Origin: a virus
Lineage: Duplodnaviria > Heunggongvirae > Uroviricota > Caudoviricetes
Length of the DNA: 32,265 nt
Strand: one strand, 5' to 3'
IMG/VR virus record: IMGVR_UViG_2651869694_000010
The notes under the pieces are model-generated. The model searched no databases and had not been told where the DNA came from. It was given only the letters and a program-made list of their open reading frames with translations. Made by a program: the position numbers and the translations under genes. Numbering within the stretch: position 1 is the first letter of the stretch; each line of letters begins with the position of its first letter. This document shows positions 3,076 through 9,438 of the stretch, in pieces.

Positions 3076-3239
3076 AAAAATTCCTTAATACTGATAACTG
3101 GGCGCACTATACACACGTTCCTGAAGAAAGCTATAGTTTTTTGATGGGGTTGAAGATGGCTGGATGTCTAAAATAAACATTGCTTCATATGTTCAACTAT
3201 GCGTTAATGATTGCGTCGGTTTGAAGAACAGACGATATA

Positions 3240-3375
3240 CGAAGTAGTTTACTAAAGCAGTTCTCATTTCAGGTGTTATTCACTTATTCCTTCTTTGAGT
3301 CTCTCCAATTAAGTACGAAGTCGTTTCTGTTATACAAGCCATTTATGCCGAAAGGCTCAAGTTAAGGAATGTAGA
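3240..3375 (+). promoter_or_regulatory. cspB-type 5' leader with cold-shock-gene upstream motif
   Basis: GCCGAAAGGC (3347-3356) about 20 nt upstream of the start codon resembles the conserved element in cspA-family 5' UTRs; boundaries are approximate. Confidence 0.3.
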
Positions 3376-3591
3376 ATGTCAAATAAAATGACTGGTTTAG
3401 TAAAATGGTTTAACGCTGATAAAGGTTTTGGCTTTATTTCTCCTGTTGATGGTAGTAAAGATGTGTTTGTGCATTTTTCTGCGATTCAGAATGATAATTT
3501 TCGAACCTTATTTGAAGGTCAAAAGGTTACCTTCTCTGTAGAGAGTGGTGCTAAAGGTCCTGCAGCAGCAAATGTCATAATTACTGATTAA
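3376..3591 (+). CDS. cspB: cold-shock protein CspB-like
   Basis: [23 protein letters not shown]...VHFSAIQ...[11 protein letters not shown] carries the RNP1/RNP2-like motifs of CspA-family proteins. Confidence 0.85.
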
Positions 3592-3872
3592 AATTCATAG
3601 TTTGTCTGTATACGATAACGAAGAAGGCTGATGCCTGAGTGGAGATACAGACAGAGTGGTGAATATTGGATCTCTTTAATAAATAGTAAGGAGGTCCAAT
3701 ACATGAAACAATGGCCAGCATATTTGGCAATAACTTAATCAGGAAAAGTATGCTAACCATTGTGGTGAAGTGCAGGTTTGCTGCATGAATAGTTTTACAG
3801 CAGAAGCTAACTGCTGGCATAGCAAAACAAAGTGCGTAAGTGGATGACTCCCACAAAAAGTACCACAATATT

Positions 3873-3954: not shown

Positions 3955-4125
3955 TCAAGCTACAGCTTTAAGATTTGTCTGGAATACTTTGTTGCAATGA
4001 GGGCAGATCAAAAGGGCACCTTTTTGTACTCTTGAAAAACTGTGTTCTGACTCTTGGGTGCAGTTTGGGCAGGAACATTTAACGAGATAATTACGGCGTG
4101 ATTTTGAGTCTTTACGTTCTGACAT
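3955..4125 (-). CDS. small C4 zinc-ribbon protein (about 56 aa)
   Basis: MSERKDSKSRRNYLVKCSCPNCTQESEHSFSRVQKGALLICPHCNKVFQTNLKAVA has two CxxC pairs; ATG at 4125 on the minus strand is preceded by AGGAAAA. The longer 4176 start is also possible. Confidence 0.45.
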   Translation of the reverse strand: MSERKDSKSRRNYLVKCSCPNCTQESEHSFSRVQKGALLICPHCNKVFQTNLKAVA

Positions 4126-4343
4126 AGGCTTTTCCTGTATAAATGGCCGTATACAGTACACTAAATATGAAAACATATCTCGTATTATTATTTAATATAT
4201 GATTTTCTTTTAAAATAATTACCCACATTTTTAATGTGTCTGTTTTTTAGCGCCGTTGAGAACAACGTTTGCTATAAAAACTAACCCATAGACTCCGATC
4301 TTTTCAAACATATTGCACCATCTGTGTACATCGGGGTGAGGAT

Positions 4344-4563: not shown

Positions 4564-5115
4564 ATGACACAAGACTATGAACTGGTTGTGAAAGGAGTCC
4601 GCAATTTTGAGAATAAAGTGGCGGTAACTGTAGCCTTACGGGACAAAAAACGCTTTGACGGTGAAATTTTTGACCTGGACATCTCGCTGGACCGTGTTGA
4701 AGGTGCCGCGCTTGAGTTTTATGAGGCAGCAGCGAGAAGGAGCATCAGACAGGTCTTCCTGGATGTTGCTGCCGGGTTATGTGTAGGGGATGAGCAGTCG
4801 CCGGAAAAGCGCCCCATAATTTTAGAGGCGCAGAATGTGTGGATAACCTACAAAGGAAAGCTACCGGGAAGAATTACTGGTTCTCTGAAGACGCCACCGA
4901 CGGCATTGCGGTCAGAAAAAGATGATATTGAATCGCCCATTGAAAAACTGGAGGGCAGCGTCGCTGATCTGAATAAAAAATTGTCGGTGCTGATCCCTTC
5001 TGAAGATGAAAAAAAACGCCGCGATGAGCAGTTTGCGGCGTTTTACGATTATTGCATTGAAGTTACTCGCAGGAATTTTGTGAAGATTTTTGAAGAGGGT
5101 AAATCTCTTCAGTAA
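4564..5115 (+). CDS. ydfR: YdfR/DUF1327-like protein of unknown function inside the lysis cassette
   Basis: ATG at 4564 just after the holin stop; N-terminus MTQDYELVVKGVRNFENKVAVTVAL matches my recollection of K-12 YdfR. No transmembrane segment is evident. Confidence 0.5.
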   Translation: MTQDYELVVKGVRNFENKVAVTVALRDKKRFDGEIFDLDISLDRVEGAALEFYEAAARRSIRQVFLDVAAGLCVGDEQSPEKRPIILEAQNVWITYKGKLPGRITGSLKTPPTALRSEKDDIESPIEKLEGSVADLNKKLSVLIPSEDEKKRRDEQFAAFYDYCIEVTRRNFVKIFEEGKSLQ

Positions 5116-5436: not shown

Positions 5437-6464
<1,028 letters not shown>

Positions 6465-6824
6465 ATTAATATTAAATCGGATTATTTTTAGCGCTGAATG
6501 TGAAATTTAAATAAAAAGGACTCTTCCATGAGTCAAAATCCTTGAAATCTTAAGGGTAAGATAAAAGGTCATTAGACAGAATGACACGTTTTATTAATAA
6601 ATAAAGCTATTGTTTCATTCGTGTGTTTTTCTTTACAAAAGTAATCCTTGCTATGGTTGGTTAATCATGCGTTAATGGTGTTCTGGTTTGTTACAAAATT
6701 ATCTGAAGCAGTCATTGTTATAATTTTATTATTTGTACCTCTTGAGATTTCCTTGTTGGTTTTTCTCTCTGATATTTTTTTTCGGACCATTCTGCCCAAG
6801 GGCTAACTTCTTCAAAAGGTAATA

Positions 6825-7040
6825 ATGATGTCTAACAAAATGACTGGTTTAGTGAAATGGTTTAACCCTGAAAAAGGTTTTGGTTTCATCACGCCGAAAG
6901 ATGGTAGCAAAGATGTGTTTGTCCATTTCTCAGTTATTCAGAGCAACGATTTCAAAACGTTAACTGAGAATCAGGAAGTCGAATTTGGTATTGAGAACGG
7001 ACCTAAAGGCCCCGCGGCTGTTCATGTAGTGGCACTTTGA
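6825..7040 (+). CDS. cspI: cold-shock protein CspI-like
   Basis: [36 protein letters not shown]... is a CspA-family sequence, located after Rz as cspI is in Qin. Confidence 0.8.
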
Positions 7041-7243
7041 GGTAGAAAATATTACAAACCATATTCACTTTAGATGCCCGTGTTGCCATGGTTCTCAGTA
7101 TAGAACATCATCTTTTGATGTTTCTGACAGGAATCCTTTCGGGGCAAAATGTATCTTTTGTAAATCAATGATGATTACATTTGATAATATTTCACAATAC
7201 TTAAATGTTAGCCGTCTGTCGTTAGATTTAAGAAAGTGAAAAT

Positions 7244-7267
7244 GAAGGCTCCTTCGGGAGCTTTTTT
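7244..7267 (+). terminator. candidate intrinsic terminator
   Basis: GCTCC-TTCG-GGAGC hairpin followed by TTTTTT. Confidence 0.45.
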
Positions 7268-7311
7268 GCTTAGTGTCTGGTCGATGGATACTCACATATT
7301 ACGGTAACATT

Positions 7312-7542
7312 ATGAAAAAAATAATAGTTTTTTTTAACTCTGAACCAGCAATGGTAGTGCCAGTGATGACCGGAGTTAACACCATCATGCGTGAATATCC
7401 AAATGGCGAAACAACACACCTCACTGTAATGGCTGCAGGGTTTCCATCTCTGACCGGAGATCATAAAGTCATTTATGTTGCAGCGGATCGACATGTAACT
7501 TCAGAAGAAATTCTGGAAGCAGCAATGAGACTCTTGAATTGA
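7312..7542 (+). CDS. hypothetical small protein (about 76 aa)
   Basis: ORF from ATG at 7312 (the listed ORF starts at an upstream GTG, 7273): MKKIIVFFNSEPAMVVPVMTGVNTIMREYPNGETTHLTVMAAG... No confident family assignment; occupies the Qin accessory position between cspI and gnsB. Confidence 0.35.
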   Translation: MKKIIVFFNSEPAMVVPVMTGVNTIMREYPNGETTHLTVMAAGFPSLTGDHKVIYVAADRHVTSEEILEAAMRLLN

Positions 7543-7711
7543 TTTGATTCTAATGCATTGATAATAAATGATAATCATCTTTATCTGTTTGTGTGAAATT
7601 TAGACCGTCGTATGTTGATTATTGCGATGTTTCATCTTATCTTTTATACGTTTGCTCCATATAATTGACACTACTGTGTACCAGGAAAGTCATAACAGAC
7701 TAAAAGAGGAA

Positions 7712-7889
7712 ATGATGAACATTGAAGAGTTAAAAACAAAAACAGAAGCAGATATTTCTGAATATATAACAAAAAAAAATCATTGAGCTTAAGAAAAAGA
7801 CCGGGAAAGAAGTTACCAGTATCCAGTTTACTGCACGGGAAAAAATGACTGGTCTTGAAAGCTATGATATCAAGATTGATTTAATCTAG
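7712..7889 (+). pseudogene. gnsB: gnsB/gnsA-family gene interrupted by a frameshift in an A9 run
   Basis: MMNIEELKTKTEADISEYITKK runs into a TGA at 7784-7786; removing one A from the A9 tract (7771-7779) restores ...IIELKKKTGKEVTSIQFTAREKMTGLESYDIKIDLI, matching GnsA/GnsB-family proteins as I recall them. Confidence 0.55.
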
Positions 7890-8184
7890 TATGTTTATAG
7901 TATTAGCATCAATTTCTCATCAGATGCTATTCAACAATACAAATTACCCATAAACCTCGTTTTTACGGGGTTTTGTTATATTTAAACATTACCGAATAGA
8001 TATAAATCTCGATTGTCGATGGTATTGGTTGTGTGACAATACCTAGTCTTTCCGGTATGCCTGAAGAGAATACAAACGACAGATTATGTAAGGGAAACGC
8101 GCTGAAACTTTCACTCTTTCATGCTGAGTGATTTGACGTTATATTTTTAGCCGCAAGTGAAGAGCAAACGCATGGAGCGACAAA

Positions 8185-8391
8185 ATGCATAAAGATCAAT
8201 ATACTGATGCCCCCTCCCAGGAGCAGGTTCGTGTAAAAACTATGCTTAATAGCACCATTTCGATGGGTTACCCGGATGTTGTAATTGCATGTATAGAACA
8301 TCAAGTATCTCTGGAAGCATTCAGGGCAATTGAGGCCGCGTTAGTAAAGCACGATAAGAATACGAAGGATTATTCCCTGGTGGTTGACTGA
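8185..8391 (+). CDS. hypothetical small protein (68 aa)
   Basis: ORF only; lies where Qin carries ydfO/ynfO-type accessory genes, but I cannot confirm identity. Confidence 0.3.
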
Positions 8392-8754
8392 TCACCATAA
8401 CTGCTAACCATTCTGACCATTTCACAAGTGACAGAGTCAATATCGTATTCTGTCACTGTCAGGCTAATACAGTACTGCAATTCAACTACAGCAATGCCTC
8501 GTATTTAGGTGAATTTACAATATCGTCCAGTTCGGATGCCGGCTGCATTTCTGAAGATAAGGCATTTCGGTTCGCGTATTTTCCCCTCATGCTCGTCAGT
8601 CCTGCGCGTAGTAAGAAACAGGACACTCACACTAATTTGTGTGGGCATGCTGTGATGTCCTTCTGAATTATCCCCACGCCATTATGTAAAGCTCTGTTTC
8701 AGATGCTCGTCACGGTTGTCAGGCTGTCGGGTCCTCCCTGTGGGGGGCCCTGCC

Positions 8755-8774
8755 ACGGGGCGGGAGCGTCGCGG
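8755..8774. other. cos site (cosN-like cohesive-end region)
   Basis: ACGGGGCGGGAGCGTCGCGG resembles the lambda cosN context ACG-GGGCGGCGACCT-CGCGG as I recall it (four of twelve core positions differ). It lies about 170 bp upstream of the terminase small subunit in a 550-bp non-coding region. Confidence 0.45.
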
Positions 8775-8943
8775 AAAAAGGCTAGTTTTTGAAATTTTAT
8801 TCGTCATCACCACTACTGTAATTGATTGATATTGCAGTGGTTTTATTTTTATGGTGTCGATTCTGATTGTTTTTTGTTCATCACTAACACCGTTTGCCTA
8901 AAGTTGTTCGCAAGATGCATGTTTAAAACATTCTGGAGCGGGT

Positions 8944-9438
8944 ATGGATCGAGAGTTAAAAAATCTGACGCTTAATATCAGTCAACTGGCGGCACTGTCA
9001 GGTGTACATCGCCAGACTGCTGCGGCAAGGCTGCAAAATCTACCCGTTGCAGGGGGGCATGAAAGCAACCTCAAGCTTTATCGGGTGGTTGATATTGTGT
9101 CGGCATTTCTGGCATTACCACCGCCGGTTGCAGAAGGCGAAATGGACGCGCATGAGCGCAAAGCCTGGTATCAGTCTGAACGTGAGCGTCTTAAGTTCGA
9201 ACAGGAAACGGCACAACTCATTCCGGCCAGTGATGTCAGACGGGAGTTTGCCATCTGGGCAAAAGCGGTCGTGCAGGTGCTGGAGACATTACCGGATATT
9301 CTTGAACGTGACTGCGGTCTGCAGCCTGCCGCTGTGAGCCGTGTTCAGTCCATTATTGATGATCTGCGCGATCAGATAGCCCTGCGGGTGACTGAAGCAG
9401 GTGCGGATGATGAGGAGGAATTACAGCAGGAGGAGTAA
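8944..9438 (+). CDS. terminase small subunit (Nu1/NohA-NohD-like)
   Basis: 164 aa with N-terminal helix-turn-helix-like segment LNISQLAALSGVHRQTAAARL and acidic C-terminus, immediately upstream of the large terminase. Confidence 0.8.
   Translation: MDRELKNLTLNISQLAALSGVHRQTAAARLQNLPVAGGHESNLKLYRVVDIVSAFLALPPPVAEGEMDAHERKAWYQSERERLKFEQETAQLIPASDVRREFAIWAKAVVQVLETLPDILERDCGLQPAAVSRVQSIIDDLRDQIALRVTEAGADDEEELQQEE

Follow-up and report, generated by a model that had tools for sequence, protein, structure and literature searches.

A Qin-type cold-shock cassette and a lambda-type gene upstream of cos

The window, i.e. the whole 32,265-nucleotide stretch of DNA analysed here, probably carries at positions 6670-8030 a cold-shock cassette of the type found in Qin prophages. 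It would be a self-expressed moron located between the lysis genes and cos, and the lambda p79-like gene found farther downstream would be a separate accessory gene of the late operon. This cassette is already known, each gene of the interval being annotated in RefSeq and in EcoCyc-type records. Since the ORFs correspond to an annotated Qin-type cassette and to a copy of lambda p79/YbcW, the finding is an ordinary one. Its value as a discovery is small, as the genes are annotated and roughly one complete E. coli genome in five has the cassette. However, the map is corrected for two overlooked small genes, an ATT start, a frameshifted gnsB and the exact position of cos, and the cold-shock cassette can now be told apart from the lambda-derived p79 module. 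Furthermore, csp, the ATT-started ymcF-like gene, the terminator and ynfN appear as a conserved unit that provides a testable handle on the poorly characterised YnfN and YmcF/YnfQ. The features of the region are as follows:

6670..6827, + strand: cspI 5' untranslated leader, cspA-type RNA thermoregulator (Rfam RF01766)
6828..7040, + strand: cspI, CspA-family cold-shock protein, 70 aa (Pfam CSD, RefSeq WP_001372058.1)
7051..7239, + strand: ynfQ, YmcF-like zinc-ribbon small protein, 62 aa, ATT start (Pfam PF23641, RefSeq ynfQ/ymcF)
7242..7307, + strand: ynfR, 21-aa ORF overlapping the terminator hairpin (RefSeq 'small protein YnfR')
7244..7267, + strand: predicted intrinsic-terminator hairpin, GGCUCC-UUCG-GGAGCU then U6 (folding, -12.5 kcal/mol)
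7312..7542, + strand: ynfN, 76 aa, with a T8 tract at 7328-7335 (RefSeq YnfN WP_000720960.1, phrog_3425)
7715..7889, + strand: gnsB, frameshifted, with A9 at 7771-7779 (Pfam GnsAB_toxin on the A8 form)
7952..7983, + strand: predicted terminator past gnsB, hairpin 7952-7973 followed by a T-run (folding scan)
8069..8536, + strand: lambda-like module holding the 68-aa ORF (83.5% identity to lambda 47629-48090)
8185..8391, + strand: 68-aa ORF of the lambda p79 (lambdap79)/DLP12 YbcW family (phrog_657, WP_000548593.1)
8412..8463, + strand: inverted repeat GTGACAGAG...TCTGTCAC 3' of the 68-aa ORF (-19.5 kcal/mol, z -3.5)
8758..8769, unstranded: cos cohesive-end sequence GGGCGGGAGCGT (Tritos genome start)
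8812..8841: hairpin (folding scan)

The initial annotation had placed a cluster of small ORFs between Rz and cos, at the accessory position of Qin. This location is borne out by the end of the cspI CDS at 7040 and by cos at 8757/8758, and positions 6467-8026 share 91% DNA identity with the rzpQ-to-gnsB region of K-12 Qin. In this cryptic prophage, rzpQ-cspI-ynfQ-ynfR-ynfN-gnsB (b1553-b1550) display the same order, spacing and orientation as in the window, and the ATT start of ynfQ and the terminator hairpin are shared. By contrast, ynfN has a T7 tract in K-12 Qin and is annotated there as a 51-aa, N-terminally truncated protein, whereas the T8 tract of the window gives the full 76 aa; gnsB is intact in Qin and frameshifted in the window. 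On the 3' side, Qin carries ydfO and ynfO, both on the opposite strand, then nohA, whereas the window carries the lambda-type p79 module and a terminase of the DUF1441 type.

The functional temperate phages Tritos (E. coli LF82) and mEp460_ev081 harbor the same cassette in the same place, with 91-99% identity. Tritos differs by an extra opposite-strand ybcV (DUF1398) between gnsB and ybcW and by the short form of ynfN that is annotated. The chromosomal cspG-ymcF-ymcE-gnsA cluster of E. coli is paralogous and aligns at the DNA level over csp, the ymcF-like gene, the terminator hairpin and gns. However, it lacks most of the ynfN segment, the overlapping ymcE annotated there (76 aa) is unlike YnfN, and it lies outside any prophage late region. 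Annotated E. coli genomes (e.g. NZ_CP126598) match the DNA of the region at 100%. At least 80% of positions 6800-8950 is present in 1026 of the 5426 complete E. coli genomes, and more than 120 IMG/VR loci show the same gene order.

The region is a low-GC island between Rz and cos (30-42% GC over 6400-8100 vs 50-57% in the flanking phage genes). It is also a mosaic, Qin-like up to ~8026 and lambda-like at 8069-8536, where the p79 module lies. The hairpin scan gave five terminator-like sites vs 1.4 expected. Hence, the AT-rich spacers and hairpins that had been described are partly real: the GC content is low and hairpins occur at 7244-7265, 7952-7973, 8412-8463 and 8812-8841, but the presumed spacer 7041-7311 holds ynfQ and ynfR.

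Genes of the cassette

The match to RF01766 is full-length (model 1-428) and spans positions 6670-7086, into and past the cspI CDS (114.9 bits vs a gathering score of 78, E 6e-30). An extended -10-like motif, TGcTATGGT, can be read just 5' of the leader. CspI matches Pfam CSD PF00313 over residues 6-70 (9.4e-31) and its translation shows the RNP1/RNP2 motifs KGFGFI and VFVHF. Its RefSeq accession comes from a genome identical in this region, and its dN/dS is 0.03-0.04. The K-12 ortholog is described as induced by temperature downshift (Wang et al. 1999, as cited in PMC7406224).

The ATT start codon of ynfQ, at 7051, lies 10 nt past the cspI stop. ATT is kept at the equivalent position in six lineages, namely K-12, Citrobacter and four others. 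YnfQ carries two CxxC pairs (CPCC...C..C), matches the YmcF-like family PF23641 with 113.2 bits (cut-off 27, 6e-33) and has a dN/dS of 0.14 (vs Citrobacter). The gene was absent both from the gene list of the initial annotation and from the program-made list of ORFs. The predicted terminator lies directly 3' of its stop codon. In the same place, Citrobacter L170, L214 and L217 and the cspG-ymcF cluster of K-12 show a GC hairpin followed by a T-run, with different stem sequences; in total, four of the six diverged lineages have it, in addition to the cspG cluster. No canonical terminator was found at this site in lineages L172 and L216.

The short ynfR had also been overlooked. In K-12, cold shock strongly raises the level of its SPA-tagged product (PMC6001520). 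YnfR has no match in Pfam or NCBIfam. We rejected ynfR as a conserved peptide because Citrobacter keeps the hairpin but not the ORF, whose ATG is missing.

The two small ORFs that had been left without any assignable function do start with ATG and extend over 7312-7542 (76 aa) and 8185-8391 (68 aa), but both were already recognised, as YnfN and lambda p79/YbcW respectively. For the former, the stretch is identical in NZ_CP126598, where it is annotated as YnfN (WP_000720960.1), and the protein matches phrog_3425 over residues 1-76 (1.1e-55). Homologs with 51-74% identity retain the N-terminus and the length of the ORF. The dN/dS of 0.12, at a dS of 1.3 (vs Citrobacter), indicates that purifying selection acts on YnfN. 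In K-12 and nine other loci, a T7 tract cuts the protein to 51 aa; the K-12 'YnfN' is thus a truncated allele of the 76-aa protein. The AF2 model (pLDDT 87.9) shows five strands and one helix. YnfN has no Pfam or NCBIfam family, the PDB profile search was empty, and no informative fold match was obtained for either YnfN or p79. YmcE, also 76 aa long, was considered as a homolog of YnfN and ruled out, as the two proteins have no similarity.

In all six diverged lineages examined (YnfN 51-74% identical), csp and a ymcF-like gene precede ynfN: it lies 255-276 nt 3' of the CSD gene, and the interval holds a YmcF-like ORF that starts with ATT. Three lineages (L172, L214, L216) have YnfN but not GnsB, whereas an upstream csp gene always accompanies YnfN.

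A gnsB-like gene had been correctly located at 7715-7889, but it is frameshifted by an extra A. Because of this single additional A at 7771-7779, the ORF ends at 7786, with a premature stop (7784-7786) after 23 codons in place of the intact 57-codon frame. The A8 form matches Pfam GnsAB_toxin PF08178 with 114.5 bits, and the GnsA structures 4XO1/4XO2 match the gnsB product at 8e-20. A8 is present in ~2137 of 2140 E. coli records, and the 81-nt form in only 3 of 2140, labelled 'frameshifted' by PGAP. Over 32 kb, the A-tract of gnsB is the sole indel between the window and strain Ec1120. The A9 of the window may be a sequencing error in the A-tract. That the window is a mis-assembled copy of Ec1120 was ruled out: 128 substitutions and one indel separate the two over 32 kb, and the window therefore comes from a different strain. 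The dN/dS of gnsB is 0.07. Overexpression of gnsB is described as increasing unsaturated fatty acids (Sugai 2001, as cited in bioRxiv 10.1101/2024.03.27.586906). Qin homology stops soon 3' of the post-gnsB terminator, at ~8026.

The p79 module and the cos site

The 68-aa ORF had been counted in the Qin accessory cluster. It is separate from the cold-shock cassette and lies in the lambda-derived block 8069-8536, just 5' of cos; nor does it figure among the genes that the Tritos lysogen expresses. The protein matches phrog_657 over residues 1-68 of 68 (4.6e-48) and is annotated YbcW in phage Tritos. Lambda p79 (47738-47944) and DLP12 YbcW are also 68 aa long and located just before cos, with conserved flanking DNA. 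The amino acid identity to lambda p79 is 79%, the N-terminal 15 residues being different, and the dN/dS is 0.41 (vs lambda). Homologs retain the ORF at 42-56% identity. The AF2 model is a three-helix bundle (pLDDT 77.8). There is no Pfam or NCBIfam family for p79 and the PDB profile search was empty. Both arms of the 8412-8463 repeat align with lambda without any difference, unlike the loop.

As in lambda and Tritos, this ORF is the last one on the sense strand before cos (end at 8391, cos at 8758). The linear genome of Tritos opens with GGGCGGGAGCGT, and its first 25 nt match the window from 8758; the corresponding cos sequence of lambda is GGGCGGCGACCT. The small terminase also differs (Nu1 in lambda, DUF1441-type in the window), and the window has neither bor nor p78. 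In the deep homolog search for p79, most of the 'diverse' matches were error-ridden or contaminating lambda control DNA (~3.5-kb ENA contigs, lambda contigs in assemblies from unrelated phyla). The p79 family is effectively confined to lambdoid elements of Escherichia.

Expression of the cassette

The segment displays the features of a moron, i.e. its own promoter and terminator signals (the thermoregulator leader and the terminators), a deviant GC content and a site between Rz and cos. Expression in lysogens, which had been proposed as a check, is already published for part of the cluster. In the LF82(Tritos) lysogen, CspI and YnfN are expressed 93 and 27 times above the prophage background and are classed as morons; gnsB and ybcW are not listed among the genes expressed there (PMC9928086). 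AZT induces cspI, ynfQ and ynfN 6.5-, 5.9- and 5.8-fold, and the same genes depend on SspA by 38-, 42- and 51-fold, respectively (PMC11228462). In long-term stationary phase, the profiles of cspI and ynfN run parallel (PMC7406224). A cspI deletion is outcompeted under this condition.

With its own putative promoter and a cspA-type thermoregulator leader, cspI would be made from the repressed prophage once the folding of its mRNA changes. Cold is its known trigger, and late stationary phase and replication stress induce it as well. The zinc-ribbon product of ynfQ, encoded 10 nt farther, would be initiated at the conserved ATT. As ynfN is located 3' of the conserved predicted terminator that directly follows ynfQ and that the short ynfR overlaps, its transcription would require read-through. 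This could be helped by ribosomes coupled to ynfQ/ynfR or by antitermination, an activity known for proteins of the CspA family. Alternatively, a promoter for ynfN may lie within ynfQ. Located after a 172-nt gap that would leave room for a promoter of its own, gnsB has its own predicted terminator; no gnsB promoter was identified in this gap. In other strains, its product would raise unsaturated fatty acids; in the window, a +1 A slip within the A8 tract inactivates the gene. The p79 gene, which reads in the same direction as the late operon, would be expressed late.

These elements might even form a cold-sensing relay, a reading that we consider speculative and rather unlikely. An RNA thermometer would allow CspI to accumulate, then CspI or the ribosomes coupled from ynfQ/ynfR would suppress the terminator, YnfN being produced only then, and the ATT of ynfQ would add an IF3-sensitive control of initiation. 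If this were true, the beta-rich, 76-aa YnfN, for which no fold relative was detected, would act as a novel effector in the cold or in stationary phase.

Alternative explanations

Could the cluster, or ynfN-gnsB in it, be an addiction or phage-exclusion module, with GnsB as toxin and the upstream small protein as antidote? The family name in Pfam/RefSeq ('GnsA/GnsB toxin / addiction module toxin') points to it, as do the overlap of the K-12 paralog gnsA with the upstream ymcE and the ynfN-gnsB adjacency retained in Citrobacter prophages and L217. We nevertheless regard it as very unlikely: ynfN and gnsB are 172 nt apart, vs the overlap seen in typical pairs, YnfN is associated with csp rather than with GnsB among the lineages, YnfN does not resemble YmcE, and gnsB is frameshifted in the window and in other strains in which ynfN is intact. 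Moreover, the plasmid phenotypes of gnsA/gnsB quoted from the literature are growth rescue and not killing. Neither a tightly coupled co-transcribed pair nor an intact toxin is found here. PADLOC, which covers systems known in 2023, matched cspI alone, through a generic CSD model, and none of ynfQ, ynfN, gnsB and p79; the idea of exclusion was therefore dropped. Of the exclusion or host-modulating role that had been suggested, only host modulation is kept, and for part of the genes (the CspI and YnfN morons of Tritos, the effect of gnsB on fatty acids). It is even less credible that the 76-aa and 68-aa ORFs arose by chance in AT-rich non-coding DNA. Both are short and outside Pfam and NCBIfam, and the K-12 annotation has only the 51-aa YnfN, but ynfN shows a dN/dS of 0.12 at a dS of 1.3 and keeps its length and N-terminus down to 51% identity, the p79 ORF is maintained at 42-56% identity, and the AF2 models of both are confident. 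Furthermore, ynfN is transcribed in lysogens and its mRNA level is regulated (PMC11228462, PMC7406224, PMC9928086).

Instead of a dispensable passenger, p79/YbcW might be a protein with a role in DNA packaging at cos, or one that interacts with the capsid or the terminase. Its ORF invariably comes last before cos/terS, in lambda (Nu1-type), in the window (DUF1441-type, 366 nt before cos) and in Tritos. In a compact satellite-like element whose other genes code for primase, PerC, major capsid and decoration proteins, a homolog with 42% identity is found directly upstream of Nu1, with a decoration-protein gene on its other side. The non-coding flanks of p79, including the inverted repeat, are conserved with lambda. 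However, p79 occurs with two unrelated terS families, which speaks against one particular terS being its partner, it is missing from Citrobacter prophages that have this cassette along with a Nu1-type terS, and its fold is a generic three-helix bundle. The lambda literature classes the gene as non-essential, although CRISPRi knock-down of lambdap79 lowers plating to 1e-4 to 3e-4 (PMC10695390), a defect that would fit polarity on the late transcript, as the authors of that work proposed for the nin genes. On balance, a role in packaging is improbable.

The p79/YbcW protein is most likely a dispensable, late-expressed accessory protein, small, acidic and made of three helices. Since ybcW of the K-12 prophage DLP12 is induced 17-fold by Hha (PMC2408971), p79 may be partly expressed outside the late operon. 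Besides, a 2026 preprint on NIR/DUF4062 NADase immunity (bioRxiv 10.64898/2026.09.04.749371) names lambdap79 six times, including in the phrase 'expression of lambdap79'.

Setting of the small-ORF cluster

The window corresponds to the late half of an E. coli lambdoid prophage of Qin-like type, and the region considered here is ordinary and already annotated. Identities of up to 100% are found between the segment 6800-8950 and annotated complete E. coli genomes, and at least 80% of it is present in 1026 of 5426 complete E. coli genomes. Upstream are found a KilA-N-domain gene, a DUF968 gene, the Q antiterminator gene, cspF/cspB and the holin gene, and then the genes listed below. A ydfR-family gene (4564-4899), located between the holin and lysozyme genes, is an incomplete pseudogene in the annotation of the near-identical strain Ec1120.

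Gene map of the region. From cspI to the hypothetical protein, coordinates are those annotated in matching complete E. coli genomes, carried onto the window.
5437-5970: lysozyme gene rrrQ
5967-6464: Rz-like gene rzpQ
6828-7040: cspI
7051-7239: ynfQ/ymcF
7242-7307: ynfR, 21 codons
7312-7542: ynfN
7715-7889: gnsB
8185-8391: hypothetical protein WP_000548593.1
8944-9438: DUF1441-type small terminase gene, then the large terminase, head and tail genes

The initial annotation had rightly recognized an accessory cluster at the Qin accessory position, AT-rich and with hairpins: GC content is 30-42% over 6400-8100 versus 50-57% in the flanks, five terminator-like hairpins are observed versus 1.4 expected, and folding is better than that of shuffled sequence. 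Cos does lie downstream, since the deposited linear genome of Tritos, a functional temperate phage of E. coli LF82, starts with GGGCGGGAGCGT, i.e. at window position 8758. ORF listing also recovered the 76-aa and 68-aa ORFs at the positions reported. Their description as lacking an assignable function needs correction insofar as names exist for both: the 76-aa ORF is YnfN, as annotated at 7312-7542 in the matching genomes, and the 68-aa ORF is p79/YbcW. The segment 7041-7311 had been taken for a spacer but encodes ynfQ and ynfR; ynfQ was missed because of its ATT start. Furthermore, nothing in a defence-model screen supports the presence of exclusion genes at this site.

A conserved csp-ynfQ-ynfN arrangement

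At cspI, the Rfam model of the cspA thermoregulator is matched over its full length (114.9 bits; gathering score, 78), and ynfQ matches the Pfam YmcF-like family (113 bits). YnfN was compared in six lineages in all. Among these, identity is 74% in Citrobacter prophages and 51-73% in four other enterobacterial settings, some of them without an obvious prophage context. In all diverged lineages examined, a gene with a cold-shock domain precedes ynfN on the same strand, and ynfN is located 255-276 nt 3' of it. The gap always contains a YmcF-like ORF that lacks an ATG and carries ATT where the start is annotated. Immediately after the stop codon of this ORF, four of the six lineages have a GC-rich hairpin and T-run, with varying stems (GGCTCC/GGAGCT, GGCCCC/GGGGCC, GGCTCCG/CGGGAGCC and GGGCTCC/GGGGCC). 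The unit made of csp, the ATT-initiated ymcF-like gene, the putative terminator and ynfN is conserved, a mildly new comparative result.

The same hairpin, with the stem GGCTCC/GGAGCC, is found in the paralogous K-12 chromosomal cluster cspG-ymcF-ymcE-gnsA. This cluster (K-12 1051461-1052240) aligns with window 6828-7895, terminator hairpin included, but most of ynfN is missing; the ORF annotated there as ymcE is no relative of YnfN and overlaps ymcF, gnsA and the hairpin. The ynfR ORF also overlaps the hairpin and is not conserved in Citrobacter. From these alignments, it is the hairpin that seems to be conserved, and the ynfR peptide may be incidental. In K-12, SPA-tagged YnfR is produced after cold shock (PMC6001520).

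A second, stronger cspA-thermoregulator match (156.5 bits) corresponds to cspB (3215-3654), between the Q antiterminator and holin genes; cspF runs on the other strand. Cold-shock genes are therefore found on both sides of the lysis cassette. In the lineage located near icd (loci L172-L175), a second, more distant YnfN-like ORF (4037-4279, 80 aa, 35% identity) lies 5' of the csp gene, so that YnfN paralogs flank csp on both sides.

Frameshifted alleles of ynfN and gnsB

Compared with Citrobacter, dN/dS is 0.03 for cspI, 0.14 for ynfQ, 0.12 for ynfN (dS 1.3) and 0.07 for gnsB. Homologs as distant as 51% identity still conserve the first 25 residues of the 76-aa YnfN. The 5' tract of ynfN (7328-7335) is T8 in the window versus T7 in K-12, which removes the first 25 codons; hence, the YnfN annotated in K-12 is only the C-terminal 51 aa, read from a GTG. 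Since the N-terminus is conserved and T7 is found in 10 of 159 loci (K-12 and nine other fetched loci), the 76-aa form is the ancestral protein. The 51-aa K-12 YnfN is thus the product of a truncated allele, the conserved protein having 76 aa; this point is mildly new.

gnsB, which had been taken as intact, is frameshifted: positions 7771-7779 are A9 versus A8 in Ec1120, and the protein is cut after 23 codons. This A-tract is the only indel between the window and Ec1120, the closest genome, over 32 kb, along with 128 substitutions. The resulting 81-nt form occurs in only 3 of the 2140 E. coli records with the segment, and the two inspected are labelled 'frameshifted' by PGAP. At least three further E. 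coli assemblies thus share the slip with the window. Among the fetched loci, 143 have A8, one has A7 (IMG/VR locus L091) and two, chosen for carrying it, have A9. The A9 of the window may be genuine or may be an error in sequencing the homopolymer. Overall, in a minority of strains, homopolymer slips knock out either ynfN or gnsB, also a mildly new observation.

The label 'addiction module toxin' given to gnsB is not matched by the evidence here, and ynfN-gnsB does not fit an addiction or toxin module. The two genes are 172 nt apart without overlap, GnsB is absent beside YnfN in three lineages, YnfN has no relation to YmcE, and the gene frameshifted here is gnsB, the supposed toxin. Crystal structures of GnsA (4XO1/4XO2) are available for the family. 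A preprint (bioRxiv 10.1101/2024.03.27.586906, citing Sugai 2001) describes plasmid-borne gnsA or gnsB as increasing unsaturated fatty acids and rescuing low-temperature growth in some mutants; such phenotypes agree with a cold-adaptation cassette.

Expression of the cassette

AZT treatment increases expression of cspI 6.5-fold, ynfQ 5.9-fold and ynfN 5.8-fold, and their SspA dependence is also nearly equal (38-, 42- and 51-fold, respectively) (PMC11228462). In long-term stationary phase, fold-changes of cspI and ynfN are parallel and a cspI deletion is outcompeted (PMC7406224). In the Tritos lysogen of E. coli LF82, transcription exceeds the prophage background 93-fold for CspI, 27-fold for YnfN and 59-fold for CspB; the list of morons given there includes these three genes but neither gnsB nor ybcW (PMC9928086). 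The published results are compatible with ynfN being transcribed together with cspI by passage through the terminator, and with expression independent of the phage late promoter. CspA-family proteins were reportedly found by Bae et al. in 2000 to be transcription antiterminators at intrinsic terminators. By analogy, this suggests that CspI might promote read-through into ynfN.

Mosaic structure and the p79-family gene

Homology to the K-12 Qin prophage (91%) starts at the end of rzpQ, includes gnsB and ends at about 8026. After gnsB, K-12 Qin has ydfO and ynfO on the opposite strand and then nohA, whereas the window is lambda-like: 8069-8536 is 83.5% identical to lambda 47629-48090. This block includes the p79 ORF with about 115 nt 5' and about 145 nt 3' of it, and past 8536 the sequence is of another cos/terminase type. 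Judging from these homologies, the region is a mosaic. In Tritos, an additional gene, ybcV, lies on the opposite strand and separates gnsB from ybcW, so the junction of the Qin-like and lambda-like blocks is a variable slot. An inverted repeat (8412-8463; GTGACAGAG...TCTGTCAC; -19.5 kcal/mol, z -3.5) lies 3' of the p79-like ORF; its arms are exactly those of lambda, its loop differs and it has no T-run. Conservation of the non-coding flank, up to 8536, equals that of the ORF.

The 68-aa ORF belongs to the lambda p79/DLP12 YbcW family, as shown by a phrog_657 match (4.6e-48), by its identity to lambda p79 (79%) and by the YbcW annotation in Tritos. The modelled protein is an acidic three-helix bundle (pI 5.45, pLDDT 77.8) with generic matches only. 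This is a narrow family. Of the 122 representative proteins obtained in an exhaustive HMMER scan, most are noisy translations of lambda control DNA. Across species-representative genomes, genuine copies were found in Escherichia only, besides lambda contamination in about 30 unrelated assemblies. There are two true divergent homologs (56% and 42% identity). The 42% homolog (loci L006/L007, 5001-5207) lies between a decoration-protein gene and Nu1, immediately 5' of this Nu1-type small terminase gene, in a compact satellite-like element that also encodes DUF4222, a DUF927 primase, PerC and a lambda-E-like capsid protein. A second homolog (L008) adjoins AlpA and Rep-like genes.

Lambda p79 is classed as non-essential, yet its CRISPRi knock-down cuts plating 10^3- to 10^4-fold (efficiencies 3e-4 and 1e-4); the authors ascribe a similar discrepancy in the nin region to polarity (PMC10695390). 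Applied to p79, such polarity would place the gene on a late transcript running across cos into Nu1. We conclude that the 68-aa ORF is a late-operon accessory gene outside the cold-shock cassette, with a possible tie to packaging.

The contaminating lambda DNA (L178-L211) is found in species-representative assemblies of Pseudomonas, Streptomyces, Cohnella, Flavobacterium and other members of unrelated phyla, on contigs roughly 48.4 kb or 3.5 kb long, and most likely derives from spike-in or control-strand contamination. Many p79-family 'proteins' in ENA are noisy translations of such DNA.
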